Positions 1,433-8,810 of a stretch of 64,000 nt of DNA are shown in pieces. Both the position numbers and the translations under genes were made by a program. Below the pieces are notes generated by a model. It did not search any database, was not told the DNA's origin, and saw nothing but the letters and a program-made list of their open reading frames with translations. This DNA comes from Candidatus Binatia bacterium (lineage in GTDB: Bacteria > Desulfobacterota > Binatia > UBA12015). The number at the start of each line of letters is the position of its first letter. Position 1 is the stretch's first letter. The stretch is from contig DASRFA010000050.1 in the NCBI GenBank assembly GCA_035651755.1, positions 40,374 through 104,373 of the forward strand, in the 5' to 3' direction.

Positions 1433-2449
1433 CTAGCCCATCGGGTAGAGAATCTCGCGGGTGATCGCGTCGCACGCGGCGCGGAGTTCTTCCGGGAGCG
1501 TCGTTTCCGCGCCGCGGACGAGGTCGTCGAGCTGCTCGGGCCGTGTGGCTCCGACGATCGTCGACCCGACGAAGTCGTGCGCGAGCGTCCACGCGACGCC
1601 GAGGGTGACGAGCGGGAGACCGGCGTCGGCCGCGATCGCGGCGAAGCGCCGCGTCGACTCGAGGGTCTTCGCGTTCACGAAGCGGCGGGCCATCGCCTGC
1701 GTGCGCGGGCTGTGCTCTCGGTACCAGGTGAAGCGCGCGCCGGCGGGCCAGGCGCCGTCGAGGTACTTGCCGGACAGGACGCCGCCCGCGATCGGGCTGT
1801 AGGGAAGGAGGCTCACCTGCTCGCGCCGGCACACCTCCGCGAGCGCGTCCTCGAAGCGGCGGTTCAGGAGGCTCCAGTTGTTCTGGATCGTCTCGTAGCG
1901 CGGGAGCCCGTGCGCGTCGGCCGCCCAGAGGCTCTTCGTGAGGCCGTACGCCGTCTGGTTGCTGCAACCGATCGCGCGCACCTTGCCCTCGTCGACGACG
2001 CGCGCGAGCCCTTCGAGGGTCTCCTCGATCGGCAGGTCGGGATCCGGCCAGTGCGTCTGGTAGAGGTCGATGTAGTCGGTGCCGAGACGCGCGAGGCTCG
2101 CGTCCACGGCGCGCGCGATCGAGTGCCGGTCGAGCGCGGTGCGGCCGTTCCGGACCGGCGCCTGGAACCAGCCGCCGCCCGGCCCCGCGACCTTGGTCGC
2201 GACGAAGACCGCGTCGCGCGGCTTGCCGGCGAGCCACTTGCCGACGATCTCCTCGCTCCGCCCGGCCCAGCCGCGATCCGGCGGCACGGGATACACCTCG
2301 GCGACGTCGAGGAAGTCGATCCCGGCGTCGTACGCGCGGTCGAGGATCCGAAGGCTCGTCGCCTCGTCGGCCATCGAGCCGAACGTCATCGTGCCGAGGC
2401 AGATCTCCGAGACCACCAATCCCGAGCGCCCGAGCCGTCGCCGCTTCAT
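1433..2449 (-). CDS. Aldo/keto reductase (NADPH-dependent oxidoreductase).
   Basis: Internal ATG of ORF 1433..2806: MKRRRLGRSGLVVSEICLGTMTFG...DFLDVAEVY...AIGCSNQ. The AKR motifs are present and a GGAGGTGA RBS precedes the ATG. The upstream R-rich extension was rejected. Confidence 0.9.
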   Translation of the reverse strand: MKRRRLGRSGLVVSEICLGTMTFGSMADEATSLRILDRAYDAGIDFLDVAEVYPVPPDRGWAGRSEEIVGKWLAGKPRDAVFVATKVAGPGGGWFQAPVRNGRTALDRHSIARAVDASLARLGTDYIDLYQTHWPDPDLPIEETLEGLARVVDEGKVRAIGCSNQTAYGLTKSLWAADAHGLPRYETIQNNWSLLNRRFEDALAEVCRREQVSLLPYSPIAGGVLSGKYLDGAWPAGARFTWYREHSPRTQAMARRFVNAKTLESTRRFAAIAADAGLPLVTLGVAWTLAHDFVGSTIVGATRPEQLDDLVRGAETTLPEELRAACDAITREILYPMG

Positions 2450-2584
2450 CGTCACCTCCCTCGATCGCGAGCGCGCGAGCTTAGCGAATGCCCGCCGTGG
2501 CCTGCGAACAGTGTTCGATGCAATGTAACGCCCCGTACATCGGGCGTTCACGACCAACCCGCCCGCCGTGAAGGGAGGACGTAG

Positions 2585-3003
2585 ATGCCGACCGTGAAGA
2601 TCGTAGCGATCGCGCTGGCCGCACTCGTGATTGCCGTGCCGGCTTCGGCGCTCGACTGTGCTTCTACCCGACGTCACTGGTCTTCGTTGCGAAGAGCTAC
2701 AAGAGACCTTCGAGAGGGAAGTGCCGTTCGTTGACCGGATACGAGGGGTCGACGTCGGTTCCCCACGCGGCCACCGGGACGGCATGCTTGAACGCAGCCG
2801 GCACACAGCTCTACGTCAATTGGAACGTCCTGCGCGACGAAGGGACGGACATCGCATTCTACAGCGTGAGGATGAAGCTGCCCTATCCCTCCCTGACCGG
2901 TGGCTTCACCACGTTCTGCAGCAGCAGCGCGATCGCGGGGATCAATTGCGGCGCCAATTCCCCGGAGTCCGCCTTCCCGTGCGTGCCGGCGCCGCTCCCG
3001 TGA
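2585..3003 (+). pseudogene. Small secreted Cys-containing protein, apparently frameshifted. A signal-peptide ORF at 2585..2734 overlaps ORF 2731..3003 in the -1 frame.
   Basis: The ATG at 2585 encodes a textbook Sec signal peptide (MPTVKIVAIALAALVIAVPASA) and stops after 49 codons. The overlapping ORF encodes TGYEGSTSVPHAATGTACLNAAG...FTTFCSSSAIAGINCGANSPESAFPCVPAPLP. The region is about 60% GC against ~72% for its flanks. Confidence 0.4.
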
Positions 3004-3135
3004 CGAGAACGGTCGGCGCTGTATCGCTCGATTTCGGTTCGGACACGACCCACGGGCAGAGGTGACTTGTCGGCCGGCGGTCCGATCGCCATACTGCGCG
3101 CCGCCCGGCCTCTGCCGCGATCCCACCCAGGTTCG

Positions 3136-4656
3136 ATGACCGAAAGTTCCGAAGAGCTGCGCCGCCGCGCGCCCGACCCGACTTCCGGCGCCGCCGTCGT
3201 GATCGGCGGCGGCATCACCGGGCTCGCCGCCGCGCTCGTGCTGTCGGCGCGCTTCGCTCGCGTGACGATCCTCGAGCGCGATCTCGAGCCCGACGCCGCG
3301 ACCCCGCGCGAGGCTTTCGACGTCTGGCGGCGCCGTGGCGCCGTGCAGGTGCGGCACTCGCACGCCTTCCTCGGCCGCCTCCGGAACCTGCTGCGCGACC
3401 GCCACCCCGACCTGCTGGCCGCGCTCGTCGACGCCGGAGCGCGCGAGCTCCGCATGCTGGACTTCCCGCCCGTCACGCTCGGACCCGTCCCGCCGGAGCC
3501 GGGCGACGACGACCTCGTCATGCTCGGCTGCCGGCGCATCACGTTCGAATGGGTCCTCCGCCGGTACCTCCGGGCGCGTGCGAACGTCGACATCGTCGCG
3601 GGCGCGCTCGTCGACGGGCTCGTCGCCGAGCCCGGGGATCCGCCGCGCGTCACCGGCGTGCGGTTCAGGGTGGACGGGGACGCGCGCGAGCTCACCGCTG
3701 CCATCGTCGTCGACGCGAGCGGGCGTCAATCACCGGCGCCGCGCTGGCTCGAGGAGATCGGCGCGCGCGCACCGAGGGAGGAGACGGATCCCTCGGGCAT
3801 CGTCTACTACACGCGCTTCTATCGCCTGCGGCCCGGCGCCGAGGAGCCCGCGCCCGATCGCCATCCCGGCGCGGCCGACTACAACTGGATCAAGTTCGCG
3901 ATCTTCCCGACCGACGATCGCACGTTCTCGATCACACTGGCGGCGCCGCTCGCATTTCCCGAGATGAAGGTGCTCGCGCGCACCGCCGCGTTCGACGAGG
4001 TCGCGCGCTCGCTGCCGGCGGTCGCTCGCTGGATCGACCCGGCGCGCGCCGAGCCGATCGGCGATCCCGAGCGTCCCGTCCAGGCGATGGGCGGCCTCAT
4101 CAATCGCCTGCGGCGCTTCTGCGACGAGCGCGGGCCGCTGGCACTGGGCCTCTTCGCGCTCGGCGACGCCGCGTACTGCACCAACCCGCTCTACGGGCGC
4201 GGCTGCGCCCAGGGCTTCCTCCACGCCGAGATGCTGGGAGAGGCGCTCGACCGGCATGGCGCGGACCTCGCGGCCGCCGCGCGGGCGCTCGACGCCGCCG
4301 CCCGGCGCGAGATCGAGCCGTTCTACCGGGCGTCGGTGATCGCGGACCGCGAGGCGGTCCGCAAAGCCGAAGGTCGGCGATCGCGCAGCTGGCGCGCGCG
4401 CCTCGCGCAGCGCTTCTTCGAGGACGGCGTCGCGGTCGCGACGCGCTGCGATCCCGTCGTCTATCGCGCCTTCGTGCGCATGATGAACATGCTCGAGACG
4501 CCGGAGGTCGCGTTCGGGCGGAGGAGCGTGGTCCTGCGGTCGCTCCGCGTGTGGATGCGCGGGCGCCGGCGGAACCGGGCGTACGCGATCCCCGATGGAC
4601 CCGATCGCGCCGAGGTGCTCGCGCGCTGCGAACGAGCGCTCGCGCGCGAGACCTGA
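3136..4656 (+). CDS. FAD-dependent oxidoreductase/monooxygenase.
   Basis: Rossmann dinucleotide motif VVIGGGITGLAAALVL near the N-terminus. A 506-aa protein from the internal ATG at 3136; the ORF-track start is a TTG at 3067. Confidence 0.85.
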   Translation: MTESSEELRRRAPDPTSGAAVVIGGGITGLAAALVLSARFARVTILERDLEPDAATPREAFDVWRRRGAVQVRHSHAFLGRLRNLLRDRHPDLLAALVDAGARELRMLDFPPVTLGPVPPEPGDDDLVMLGCRRITFEWVLRRYLRARANVDIVAGALVDGLVAEPGDPPRVTGVRFRVDGDARELTAAIVVDASGRQSPAPRWLEEIGARAPREETDPSGIVYYTRFYRLRPGAEEPAPDRHPGAADYNWIKFAIFPTDDRTFSITLAAPLAFPEMKVLARTAAFDEVARSLPAVARWIDPARAEPIGDPERPVQAMGGLINRLRRFCDERGPLALGLFALGDAAYCTNPLYGRGCAQGFLHAEMLGEALDRHGADLAAAARALDAAARREIEPFYRASVIADREAVRKAEGRRSRSWRARLAQRFFEDGVAVATRCDPVVYRAFVRMMNMLETPEVAFGRRSVVLRSLRVWMRGRRRNRAYAIPDGPDRAEVLARCERALARET

Positions 4657-4715: not shown

Positions 4716-5504
4716 TCACTCCTGGCAGTAGATCGCGGGCGTCGACGTGCCCGAAAACGCCGTCGCGGCGTCGACCGCGCTCTGCGCGTTCGCCGGCGGC
4801 AAGCAGGCCGGGAGCTTCTGCATCTGGTCGAGGTCCGCGATCGCTGCCGCCGCGTGGTCCGAGATCTTGTCGAAGCAGCGCTGGATCTTGTCGAGGGTGT
4901 ACTGGTCGAGCGTGCCGCCGTTCCGGAGCGCGTACGACGCCGCCCTCGAGTAGCACTTGTCCGCGGACAGCTGCGCCTTGAGGACGATCTTCGCGACCTC
5001 GTTCTCGCCGATGACCTCGCGCTTCTCGTCCGGGATGTTGAACCCGGTGACGGGATCCGGCGCGGCGCTGTCGCCATCGCAATAGACGGCGCTCACGCTC
5101 GAAGCGTGCTGGTTGTCGACGGCCGTCTTCTGCGCGTCGATCCCGGTCTGGTCGAGGCAGGAGGGAGTGCCCTTCAGGAGGAGCCTGTCGCGATGGCCGG
5201 CGTACCAGTCGTTCGCGTACTGCACGCACCCCTGCCAGCTCGCCTGGATGTCGGGGACCTTGTGCTGGTTCTGCGGCGTGTACGCGAGCTGGAGGTTCAC
5301 GAGGGCGATCGCGTCGCACTTGACGCGCTTCTTCAGATAATCCCCGAGGAGCTTCTTGACGTACTCTTCCTGCTTGAGGACGTACTTGTCCGGGGCGACG
5401 AAGCCGCCGCTCGCGAACGGCGGGTTCGGAAGCGTGGTGGCGAAGCCGGCGGCGGGAACCAAAAGCAGAGCAAACCCACACGAAGCGACCAGGTGTCGCA
5501 GCAT
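4716..5504 (-). CDS. Secreted hypothetical protein, 8 Cys, Lys-rich, with a lower GC than surroundings.
   Basis: N-terminal signal peptide MLRHLVASCGFALLLVPAAGFA, a GGGAGGG RBS upstream, and protein-like composition with no recognisable domain. Confidence 0.75.
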   Translation of the reverse strand: MLRHLVASCGFALLLVPAAGFATTLPNPPFASGGFVAPDKYVLKQEEYVKKLLGDYLKKRVKCDAIALVNLQLAYTPQNQHKVPDIQASWQGCVQYANDWYAGHRDRLLLKGTPSCLDQTGIDAQKTAVDNQHASSVSAVYCDGDSAAPDPVTGFNIPDEKREVIGENEVAKIVLKAQLSADKCYSRAASYALRNGGTLDQYTLDKIQRCFDKISDHAAAAIADLDQMQKLPACLPPANAQSAVDAATAFSGTSTPAIYCQE

Positions 5505-5603: not shown

Positions 5604-8600
5604 TCACGCCGATTCGGACGCGAAAGCGGCCGCCTCGCGTGCGATCGCGCCCATTCCGAGCTCGCGTGCGAGGTTCTCCGCGTCGCGCGCGGCATCGCGC
5701 GCGGCGGCCGGAACGGCCCGCCGGCGGCCCGTCCGCGACCGCGCGGCGAGCGTCCGGGCCTGATCGAGGCGCGTGATCGCGAGCCAGGGGAGGGCCCCCA
5801 TACGGTCGTGCTCCGCGCGCGCCCGCTCGAGGAGCGCGGCCGCTTCGTCCCATCGCCCGAGTGTCCGCGCGAGGAGGCCGAGAGGCCGGGTGCCGTGGCC
5901 GAGCGACGCGAGGTTCGGCCCGACGCCGATCACGCGCTCCGCGTACGGCCGGAAGAGCGCTTCGAGCGTCGCGGCCGCGCGCTCGTCAGCGAGGCCGGCG
6001 CACACCTCCGCGGCGGTCGCGATGCAGATGAGCCACACGGAATCGCGCGCGATCTGCCGGAAGCCCTCGGCCGCCAGCACGTCGAGGTCGGCGCGCGCGC
6101 CGGCGACGTCGCCCGACCGCAGCCGGACGAGGGCGAGCGTCGCGCGCGTCGAGTGCTGGTCCGGGCTCCGCTCGATCCAGGCGCTGGCCATCGTCGCCGC
6201 TTCCGCGAGCCGTCCTTCGAGGACGCGCAGCTGGAGCCGCTGGACGCCGAAGACCGGGAGGACGTTCGGGTGGTCCATGCGCCGCCCGAAGGCGGCGGCG
6301 CGCCCGATCAGCCGATCCGCCTCCGCGAGCCGGCCGTCCTGCGCCGCGCGCAGCGCCGCCAGGCGGAGCGCGAACCAGCAGAACCACGGGATCCCCGCTT
6401 CGTCCGCGAGCGCCTCGAAGTCGGCGAGCGCCTCGCCCGCCTCCGCGACGTCGCCGGCCTCGTGCAGGTCGGCGATGCGCAGCAGCTGCAGGTCGAGGGC
6501 TTGCTCCTTCGTCGTCGCGCGCCGCGCCAGCTCGCCGAGGTGGGCGGCCTCGGAGCGCAGCTCGTCGACCGCTTCCCGGCCCGAGAAGCCCCAGCGCGTG
6601 TAGCGAAGCACGCCGAGCAGGACGTCGGGGTCGTCGAGCCCGCGCGCGATCGCGATCGCGTCGCGGGCGAGCGGCTCGCGCCGCTCGTGTGCGCCGGCGA
6701 TCGGCGACAGCGCCGCGTCGAGCCGCGCGAGCAGCAGCGCGCGCAGCGCGACGTCGGCGGGCGGCACGCCGTCGAGCGCCTCCTCGAGGAGGGCGACCAG
6801 TTCTTCGTCGACGCGCGACACGACGTGATGCCCGCGACCCATCCCGAGCGCGGCCCGCGCGAACAGGTCGTGCGCTTCGGCGGCGCGCGCGAGCTCCGCG
6901 GCGCGCGCGAAGGTCGCGCGCGCGTCGCCGAGCGCGCCGCTCCGCTCTTCGGCCTCGCCGAGCGCCACGAGGACGCGGCAGCGCTCGCGCAGCGGCGCTT
7001 CCGGTGCGTGCGCGAGCGCCTCGAGCGCGAGCCGATAGTGCGCCGCCGCCTCGGCGTGCGCGTGCACGCGCTCGGCGCGCTCCGCCGCCTTCAGCGAGTG
7101 CGCGATCGCGCGCTCGACGCCCGCGGCGCCGGCGTCGAGGAAGTGGCGCGCGGTCTCCGCCGGGCTCGCGCCGATTCGCTCCTGCCATTCGCCGATCGCG
7201 CGGTGGAGCGCGGCGCGGCGCGACGGTCCGAGGCGTGCATGCAGCACCTCGCGGTGGAGCGCGTGCGCGAACGCGAACCGGCCGGACACCTCGCCATCGG
7301 GCAGCGCGGCGCTCCCGAGCGAGCGCAGGAACTGCCCGCGGCGCGCCTCGCCTTCGCACACCACCTCGACCTGCGCCGGCGGCGCGTCGAGCGCGGCCGC
7401 GACGGCCGCTGCGGCGAACTCGCCGCCAGCGACGCTCGCCGCCTCGAGCACGCGCGCGTCGTCCGCCGACAATCGCTCGAGCTGCTGCTCGATCATCTGC
7501 CGGAGTCCCTCCGGCACCTCGTCCCCGAGCTTCGCGCGCGACACGCGCCACGACGCCGCGCCGCCCACGGCGGTGAGCCAGCCGCGCTCGAGCATCTGGT
7601 CGACGAGGCTCACGACGAAGAGCGGGTTGCCGGCCGTGCGCTCGAGGACGGCTTCGGCCAGGCCCGCCGGCAGGTCGCGGACCCCGAGCCGGCGCTCGAG
7701 GTAGAGCGCGACGTGGCCGCGCTCGAGGAAAGGAAGGCACAGCTCGGCGGCGAGGCGCTGCATCTCGAGCCGATGCTTGACGACCTTCAAAGGATGCCCG
7801 GTGACGATCACGTCGACCGGGCGGTAGGTGCCGACGACCAGGAGGCGCGCCGGCGCCCGGCGATGCGCGAGCAGGGACAGCACGTCGACCGTCGACGGAT
7901 CGCTCCAGTGGAGGTCCTCGAGCGCGAGCACGAGCGCGCGGTCCCGGGTGAGCGCCTCGAGAGCCTCGGCGAGCTCGCGCAGCATGCGCTCGCGGGTCGT
8001 GCCTTGGAGCTCGCGCTGGAGCGTCTCGCGATCGCTCGCGGAGAGGAGCCACGGGAGCTGCGTGAGCCAGGTCGGCGCGACGCGGCGGAGCGCGTCCGTG
8101 ACCGGCTCCGCGTCCGGGCCGCGCGCGAGCTGGGCGAGCGCTTCGAGGATCGGGAGGTAGGCCTCGCCGCCGCCGTGGTGCTCGAGGCACTGGCCGCGCG
8201 CGACGAGCGCGCAGCCGGACGGGATCGCGGCGAGGAAGGCGTCGACCAGCGAGCTCTTGCCGATCCCGGCCTCGCCGCTGACGAACACGATCCGGCGCCG
8301 ACCCGCGCTCGCGGCGCGGAGCGCTTCGGCGAGCTGCGACAGCTCGCGCTCGCGGCCGATCGGCGCCTCCGCCGCCGCGATCGCTTCGATCGCCGCGGAC
8401 GCAGCCGGGGTCGCGAGCTCGCCCGCGCGCGGACGCTTCGCGCCGGGCGCGCCGTCGGCGCCCGCGGCGAGCGCGCCGCCGTCGCCGACCGCGTCCGCGC
8501 GCACCTCCGCGATGAAGCGGTACCCTCGGCGGTGCACGGTCTCGATGAAGCGCGGCGCCTCCGCCTCGTCCTGGAGCAGGGCGCGGATCTCGCGCACGCG

Positions 8601-8810
8601 GACCTTGAGGACGCCGTCCGCGACGTACGTGTCCGGCCAGATCGCTTCCAGGAGCTCGTCCTTCGTCACGAGGCGGCCGGCGTGCTCGACCAGGTAGTGG
8701 AGGACCGCGAAGCTCTTGGGCGGCATCGCCAGGCGGCGATCGCCGTGCCAGAGCGATTCGTCGCGTACGTCGAGGCGGTAGGGGCCGAAGGCGAGGCGCG
8801 GACCGCCCAC
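5604..8810 (-). CDS. Large signal-transducing ATPase. An N-terminal OmpR/PhoB-type winged-helix DNA-binding domain is followed by a STAND/AAA NTPase and TPR-like repeats (AfsR/MalT-like regulator).
   Basis: N-terminus ...LAMPPKSFAVLHYLVEHAGRLVTKDELLEAIWPD...RGYRFIA is a trans_reg_C domain. The Walker A motif is VFVSGEAGIGKSSLV, the hhhhD Walker B is LVLALEDLHWSD, and a long Ala/Leu-rich helical repeat region fills the C-terminus. 1068 aa. Confidence 0.85.
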   Translation of the reverse strand: MGGPRLAFGPYRLDVRDESLWHGDRRLAMPPKSFAVLHYLVEHAGRLVTKDELLEAIWPDTYVADGVLKVRVREIRALLQDEAEAPRFIETVHRRGYRFIAEVRADAVGDGGALAAGADGAPGAKRPRAGELATPAASAAIEAIAAAEAPIGRERELSQLAEALRAASAGRRRIVFVSGEAGIGKSSLVDAFLAAIPSGCALVARGQCLEHHGGGEAYLPILEALAQLARGPDAEPVTDALRRVAPTWLTQLPWLLSASDRETLQRELQGTTRERMLRELAEALEALTRDRALVLALEDLHWSDPSTVDVLSLLAHRRAPARLLVVGTYRPVDVIVTGHPLKVVKHRLEMQRLAAELCLPFLERGHVALYLERRLGVRDLPAGLAEAVLERTAGNPLFVVSLVDQMLERGWLTAVGGAASWRVSRAKLGDEVPEGLRQMIEQQLERLSADDARVLEAASVAGGEFAAAAVAAALDAPPAQVEVVCEGEARRGQFLRSLGSAALPDGEVSGRFAFAHALHREVLHARLGPSRRAALHRAIGEWQERIGASPAETARHFLDAGAAGVERAIAHSLKAAERAERVHAHAEAAAHYRLALEALAHAPEAPLRERCRVLVALGEAEERSGALGDARATFARAAELARAAEAHDLFARAALGMGRGHHVVSRVDEELVALLEEALDGVPPADVALRALLLARLDAALSPIAGAHERREPLARDAIAIARGLDDPDVLLGVLRYTRWGFSGREAVDELRSEAAHLGELARRATTKEQALDLQLLRIADLHEAGDVAEAGEALADFEALADEAGIPWFCWFALRLAALRAAQDGRLAEADRLIGRAAAFGRRMDHPNVLPVFGVQRLQLRVLEGRLAEAATMASAWIERSPDQHSTRATLALVRLRSGDVAGARADLDVLAAEGFRQIARDSVWLICIATAAEVCAGLADERAAATLEALFRPYAERVIGVGPNLASLGHGTRPLGLLARTLGRWDEAAALLERARAEHDRMGALPWLAITRLDQARTLAARSRTGRRRAVPAAARDAARDAENLARELGMGAIAREAAAFASESA

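Follow-up and report, generated by a model that had tools for sequence, protein, structure and literature searches.

The window, a 64-kb stretch of DNA (64,000 nt), carries near one end two short overlapping open reading frames on the forward strand, with genes for an aldo/keto reductase and an FAD oxidoreductase as neighbours. ORF1 and ORF2 and the features associated with them are listed in Table 1. A preceding sequence-only reading had reported a signal peptide opening ORF1, a 4-nt overlap with ORF2, whose frame is -1 to that of ORF1, and a -1 frame that stays open through the signal-peptide region. Each of these was seen again, the overlap being TTGA and the -1 frame being open from position 2572.

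Table 1. Features of the split gene and of the DNA upstream of it (window coordinates)
Feature	Position	Strand	Description
Conserved upstream element	2505..2531	+	CGAAC-N3-GTTCG-N3-C-R-ATGT-W-ACGC; 27 nt, non-coding; palindrome followed by a TGTAAC box
Shine-Dalgarno sequence	2572-2578	+	AGGGAGG, 6 nt before the ATG (read from the sequence)
ORF1	2585..2734	+	ATG start, 49 codons, TGA stop at 2732-2734; opens with MPTVKIVAIALAALVIAVPASA
ORF1 product			49 aa, translated from the real start: signal peptide, LD and a 25-aa out-of-frame tail
Signal-peptide coding part	2585..2650	+	MPTVKIVAIALAALVIAVPASA; predicted signal peptidase I site between ASA and LD
Missing-base site	2656..2657	+	A of a conserved ATG (Met) codon, absent between C2656 and T2657
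Rest of the gene, -1 frame	2659..3003	+	114 codons of the mature beta-barrel protein (CFYPTS...PCVPAPLP) plus stop
ORF2	2731..3003	+	TTG start, 90 codons, TGA stop

In DNA as rich in GC as this, a 53-codon frame picked at random is open with a probability of ~0.3-0.6 (0.33-0.61). The open -1 frame alone is therefore weak evidence, and the significance of the split-ORF observation comes from homology. A protein search with phmmer, in which the whole open -1 frame (2572-3000) served as the query, yielded four clusters, namely the 90-aa ORF itself (P0001) and three intact proteins of 142, 138 and 136 aa (P0002, P0003 and P0004, respectively). The E-values against the intact proteins ranged from 1e-33 to 5e-26, and the matches extended well upstream of the TTG codon. 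All three proteins have a signal peptide that ends in A-x-A and is followed by LDMCF...VAKSYKRPSRGKC..LTGYE.ST. The product of 2659..3003 aligned over its full length to P0002, P0003, P0004, P0153 and P0154 at 50-59% identity, and the frame-1 segment that precedes the TTG codon (CFYPTSLVFVAKSYKRPSRGKCRSL, 2659-2730) was nearly identical in alignment to the intact homologues.

In the window, the signal peptide and the residues ALD are encoded in frame 2 and CFYPTSLVFVAKSYKRPSRGKCRSLTGYEGST in frame 1, and the signal peptide and the CF of the D-[ML]-C-F motif are joined only when one base is restored. The DNA alignment of this region contains a sole gap, which sets CGCTCGAC-TGTGCTTC of the window against C[GC]CTCGACATGTGCTTC in two homologous loci (L003 and L006). 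Compared with GCnCTCGACATGTGCTTC in the homologues, GCGCTCGAC-TGTGCTTC of the window is exactly one base short, and the context of the 1-nt gap at 2656/2657 is otherwise conserved (GCGCTCGAC[A]TGTGCTTC). It follows from the single gap that the Met codon has lost its A between C2656 and T2657, where an allele with the A restored would read GACATGTGC. Putting the A back gave a 420-nt ORF encoding a preprotein of 139 aa with six Cys, close to the secreted product of ~135 aa with 5-6 Cys that had been anticipated. The repaired preprotein aligned from residue 1 to residue 139 with P0153 and P0154 (55-59% identity) and kept every residue that is invariant in the family.

From these alignments, 2585..2734 and 2731..3003 are two pieces of one gene, which upholds the central proposal of the sequence-only reading: the intact homologues, at 136-142 aa, are each a single ORF, and a single absent base explains the split. 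Of the checks that this reading had suggested, a protein search, run with the open -1 frame, returned intact homologues covering ORF2 and the frame-1 segment before it, and inspection of homologous loci gave a continuous ORF at every one that was read at the DNA level. The finding that would have counted against the proposal, a complete protein encoded by 2731..3003 by itself, was not obtained; the median length over the 161 family proteins collected is 142 aa.

A HMMER profile search of 1.84 billion representatives recovered 198 proteins at E <= 1e-3, 40 of them at E <= 1e-10. Inspection of a 53-member alignment revealed that C26, C47, C68, C136, P42 and P103 (P0002 numbering) are invariant and that G45, G52, V35 and a C-terminal Pro are nearly so, all of which are kept in the repaired window protein together with a C-terminal C-x-P-x-P-x-P. 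In the same alignment, Trp, Asn, Ser and Tyr contribute no column conserved at >= 70%, so that no ligand-binding residues are conserved, which speaks against avidin-type biotin contacts. The family is further characterized by an N-terminal Sec signal peptide whose A-x-A cleavage site precedes D-[ML]-C-F, an arrangement that is present in the window protein after repair, and by a single uninterrupted ORF of ~130-160 aa, which the window copy lacks, being split at 2656/2657. The homologues have n, h and c regions equivalent to those in the window and an A-x-A junction followed by [LA]D, and AAGGAGG occupies the position of the Shine-Dalgarno sequence in the homologous loci. On this evidence, the window copy belongs, in disrupted form, to an unnamed family of small secreted 4-Cys beta-barrel proteins. 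Assignment as a bacterial lipoprotein was rejected; the L-D-M that precedes the first Cys is not a lipobox ([LVI][ASTVI][GAS]C), in which D and M are disallowed, and the A-x-A site lies before it, which together suggest Sec-dependent export with cleavage by signal peptidase I.

Pfam and NCBIfam scans of the three reading-frame products, the 53 family members and the repaired protein gave no match (Pfam E <= 0.01), and a sequence search of PDB chains with the family profile returned nothing at E <= 10. No paralogue was found by tblastn within the 64-kb window. A third-frame ORF of 144 aa (2631..3065), protein-like on visual inspection, had no homologue and was not retained as a gene candidate. 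Among 185,579 species-representative genomes, the only family locus was L009 (QGUH02000242.1, 3544-3948), which is labelled 'MAG: Pseudomonadota bacterium isolate ZC4RG46', which means that the label of this MAG is coarse or that the family is not confined to Binatia. A metagenome scan gave four family loci, none of them a close orthologue and none beside an FAD oxidoreductase. One further protein, P0160 (238 aa, from a 138-kb ENA contig), starts like P0070 (MIRNPW...AADMCF), continues as Arg/Ser-rich nonsense and then briefly matches again. Its apparent frameshift lies at another position, which indicates that other parts of the family also contain broken copies or assembly indels, without a shared site.

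AlphaFold2 modelling of P0002 with a 4-sequence alignment gave a barrel of eight beta-strands (pLDDT 80.6). The mature window sequence (2659-3000), modelled with a 15-sequence alignment (model m7084727598b1), gave an 8-stranded barrel with pLDDT 90.2 and pTM 0.81. The mature protein is thus read, from the models, as an 8-stranded up-and-down beta-barrel of avidin/calycin-like topology. A Foldseek search of the PDB with the barrel produced no significant match (best E 0.064). Avidin and streptavidin (bradavidin 2y32, shwanavidin 3szh and streptavidin 6gmi), which are among the closest known systems, have the 8-stranded up-and-down barrel in common with the family model, but their sequence model PF01382 was matched by neither the window ORFs nor the 53 family members (E <= 0.01), and avidin membership was rejected on that ground. 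For another of these systems, the DUF1842 domain protein 8t0b, identity is 7-13%; 8t0b gives no functional information, and no member matched Pfam DUF1842. An 8-stranded outer-membrane barrel of the OmpX/NspA/PagL type, which calls for a C-terminal aromatic beta-signal and a length of ~150-170 aa, was likewise rejected. The topology, the export signal and the disulfides suggest that the protein presumably has a periplasmic or extracellular ligand-binding or inhibitor role.

The sequence-only reading had noted the adjacent flavin oxidoreductase; the link that this implies did not survive comparison with homologous loci, at none of which this neighbour is conserved. The family gene lies next to two SDRs and an S15 peptidase in L003, next to a GH5 cellulase and a carboxylesterase in L007, and next to a LysR regulator and another small ORF in L012. 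As the neighbours differ at every locus, the flavoprotein link is incidental. The small ORF of L012 (2154-2663, - strand), on a rhizosphere contig, encodes a Lys/Asp-rich product of 169 aa with several Cys and is convergent to the family gene. Within the window, a 262-aa ORF on the - strand (4716-5504; GC 0.66, GC3 0.92) has an N-terminal signal peptide, many Cys and no Pfam or NCBIfam match. Its product is another secreted protein rich in Cys that lacks annotation, and the ORF is located between the FAD oxidoreductase and a large regulator. This regulator (5604-8810, - strand), which has an AAA_16 ATPase domain and also an N-terminal OmpR-type winged helix (Trans_reg_C), lies within 2-3 kb of the family gene, as does another large AAA_16 regulator in L003 (10858-14292, + strand). 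The presence of an AAA_16 regulator near the family gene in two otherwise unrelated loci could be a coincidence in regulator-rich genomes.

The element upstream of the gene (Table 1) was found 50-85 nt upstream of the start codon in four distinct family genes, those of the window, L003 (7941-7967), L007 (7915-7941) and L012/L013/L015 (62 nt upstream of the start), which share only ~55% protein identity. It is unique in the window, and 100 shuffles gave 0 matches. The arms of the palindrome are invariant and its centre is variable, which makes it look like an operator, and 2505..2531 is designated a putative operator/promoter of the family gene. Reading the TGTAAC box as an ECF-type -35 would be speculative. 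The members at L006 and L009 lack the element in their upstream DNA. The halves of the motif are not enriched elsewhere in the window, which thus gives no evidence of a regulon, and a scan for sigma-70 promoters and intrinsic terminators returned nothing.

In public records, 2731..3003 is listed as a 90-aa protein without a pseudogene flag (P0001, HZR83496.1, 'MAG TPA: hypothetical protein VFD92_20550 [Candidatus Binatia bacterium]'; JGI P0161). This treatment as a protein, the 4-nt overlap of start and stop, and a GAGGGA situated 11-13 nt upstream of the TTG would be consistent with two genuine small genes, encoding a 49-aa secreted peptide and a 90-aa protein translationally coupled to it via the TTGA overlap. 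However, both apparent initiation signals belong to the coding sequence of the intact gene, the TTG 'start' being the Leu codon of the LTGYE motif, where L003 and L006 also have TTG for Leu, and the purine-rich sequence ahead of the TTG being the conserved Ser-Arg-Gly codons. The sole 90-aa product that starts at LTGYE comes from this same locus (P0001/P0161), whereas 131 of the 160 other proteins fall within 130-159 aa, and homologues exist for the alternative frame but not for the 25-aa tail of ORF1. The 90-aa fragment would begin in the middle of strand 3, deprived of the signal peptide, of C26 and C47 (two of the four invariant Cys) and of the first 2.5 beta-strands; that it folds or is exported is very unlikely. 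A pair of genuine genes is highly improbable, and the 90-aa ORF is instead a gene-calling artefact on a broken gene. A full-length secreted protein (ALD-L-CF) could also be made from the locus as it stands by a programmed -1 ribosomal frameshift or by transcriptional slippage, since a -1 shift placed directly after GAC would put CTG (Leu) at the position of the homologues' Met and yield a near-native protein, and both frames are open across the junction. Programmed -1 sites such as those of dnaX and the IS3-family transposases have the same arrangement of overlapping 0/-1 ORFs whose fusion makes a sensible protein. Unlike those sites, this locus has no slippery heptamer (X_XXY_YYZ is absent from the ORF1 frame, 2585-2734, as is any homopolymer of >= 4 bases), no stimulatory structure (the downstream 101 nt, 2660-2760, fold no better than shuffles, z = -0.75, and an Rfam scan of 2380-3200 gave no match) and no split conserved in relatives. 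The genes of L003, L006, L007, L009 and L012/13/15 are each one continuous ORF, all sequenced homologues, three DNA loci among them, have one more base at this position within a single unbroken ORF, P0160 as the only other apparently shifted member is shifted elsewhere, and an open overlap is expected by chance (p ~0.3-0.6). With no slippery heptamer, homopolymer or notable RNA structure, and with the shift in no homologue, programmed frameshifting was rejected as scarcely credible, and the frameshift adds nothing new on recoding.

The sequence-only reading had also singled out a low-GC islet, and the GC content of 2585..3003 is indeed lower (0.637) than that of the aldo/keto reductase gene (0.718), the FAD oxidoreductase gene (0.740) and the whole window (0.726). 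Such an offset would be compatible with a horizontally acquired islet in which the frameshifted gene is decaying foreign cargo. The GC3 of the repaired gene, however, is still 0.84, close to the 0.91-0.95 of the neighbouring genes, and the drop sits in GC1 (only 0.51). The low GC is mainly a matter of amino-acid composition, with much Ser, Thr, Asn, Lys, Tyr and Cys and little Arg. The genes of homologues are offset from their flanks likewise (0.667 versus 0.71 in L003), a paralogue is present in the same MAG, the upstream element is common to paralogues, and the flanking genes showed neither repeats nor tRNA or mobility genes. A GC3 frame plot of the window, made to look for other frameshifts, was noisy, with high GC3 in antisense frames as well. 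The islet is thus mostly a composition effect, and a foreign origin is given only a slight probability. A more serious alternative is an intact gene in the organism, with the absence of the A reflecting a read error or a consensus call among strain variants. An artefact would fit the retention of all invariant residues, the GC3 of 0.84, the intact Shine-Dalgarno sequence and upstream element, the lack of a second lesion and the model with pLDDT ~90 as well as a very recent mutation does, and the source is a metagenome-assembled genome. Nevertheless, an ENA megahit contig (ERZ27279688) and a Logan contig from run SRR5581483 match the locus at 100% identity over 7-9 kb, and the same 90-aa call is made in the NCBI TPA MAG and a 366-kb JGI/IMG contig; four assembly pipelines therefore agree on the broken ORF. 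Because the four assemblies probably share one sample or read set, their concordance excludes an assembler error and leaves room for systematic errors in the reads or for a minority/majority strain variant. A literature search for the sample accessions turned up nothing pertinent to sequencing provenance. The site itself, between GAC and TGT, is outside a homopolymer, and as no run of >= 4 identical bases occurs anywhere in ORF1 it is not error-prone; short-read consensus indels at non-homopolymer sites are very rare. An artefact is thus considered unlikely, and we infer that the gene has probably undergone a genuine, recent inactivating deletion. Of the three causes that had been listed beforehand, programmed frameshifting falls away, and a pseudogene is favoured over a sequencing indel by the four concordant assemblies and the non-homopolymer site.

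An intact paralogue of 138 aa, P0153 (VFD92_08765), has the same locus-tag prefix and comes from the same MAG and the same run (SRR5581483); no relative has a higher percent identity to the repaired protein (58.6%), and the presence of this paralogue makes the loss of one copy plausible. On the other side, a collection of 5.8 billion proteins contained no intact orthologue of > 90% identity that would display the ancestral allele. An exact look-up in a 15-billion-protein collection found neither the repaired 139-aa protein nor the 49-aa ORF1 nor the 144-aa third-frame ORF, and there is accordingly no intact identical allele on record. Ordinary frameshift pseudogenes of redundant paralogues have the same early single-base indel, an otherwise intact gene and an intact paralogue elsewhere, and nothing distinguishes the window copy from them, its sole oddity being the public 90-aa annotation.

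The consequences of a deletion can be explained by the following model. In the intact gene, a Sec signal peptide would be cut after A-x-A to release a mature chain of ~115 aa that folds into an 8-stranded barrel held by two conserved disulfides, presumably a periplasmic or extracellular binding module. Deletion of the A of the Met codon between 2656 and 2657 would throw the ribosome out of frame, so that translation from the real start would yield only the signal peptide and a brief nonsense tail that stops at 2734. The remaining 114 codons would go untranslated or would at best give a 90-aa cytoplasmic fragment from the internal TTG. Translation truncated in this way would inactivate the copy. 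The event would be recent, since the rest of the gene is undecayed, and the loss was probably tolerated because the genome retains the intact paralogue VFD92_08765.

For annotation, VFD92_20550 is the end of a 139-aa gene that the lack of one base has broken, and it should carry a pseudogene/frameshift flag. A side product of the analysis is an unannotated family of ~200 clusters at 50% identity with four invariant Cys, a confident avidin-like 8-stranded barrel model and no Pfam or NCBIfam model. A more far-reaching reading, which we regard as quite unlikely to hold, would make this family a set of undescribed secreted, disulfide-stapled avidin/calycin-like barrels of Binatia-type soil bacteria, acting as inhibitors of an extracellular enzyme or binding a specific small molecule (a vitamin, a cofactor or a lipid), with each copy having its own conserved palindromic operator (CGAAC-N3-GTTCG + TGTAAC) and the broken copy reflecting population on/off variation among paralogues. 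Should the family prove to have a defined ligand, it would hold modest interest, both as a small barrel scaffold and with regard to the biology of uncultured Binatia.
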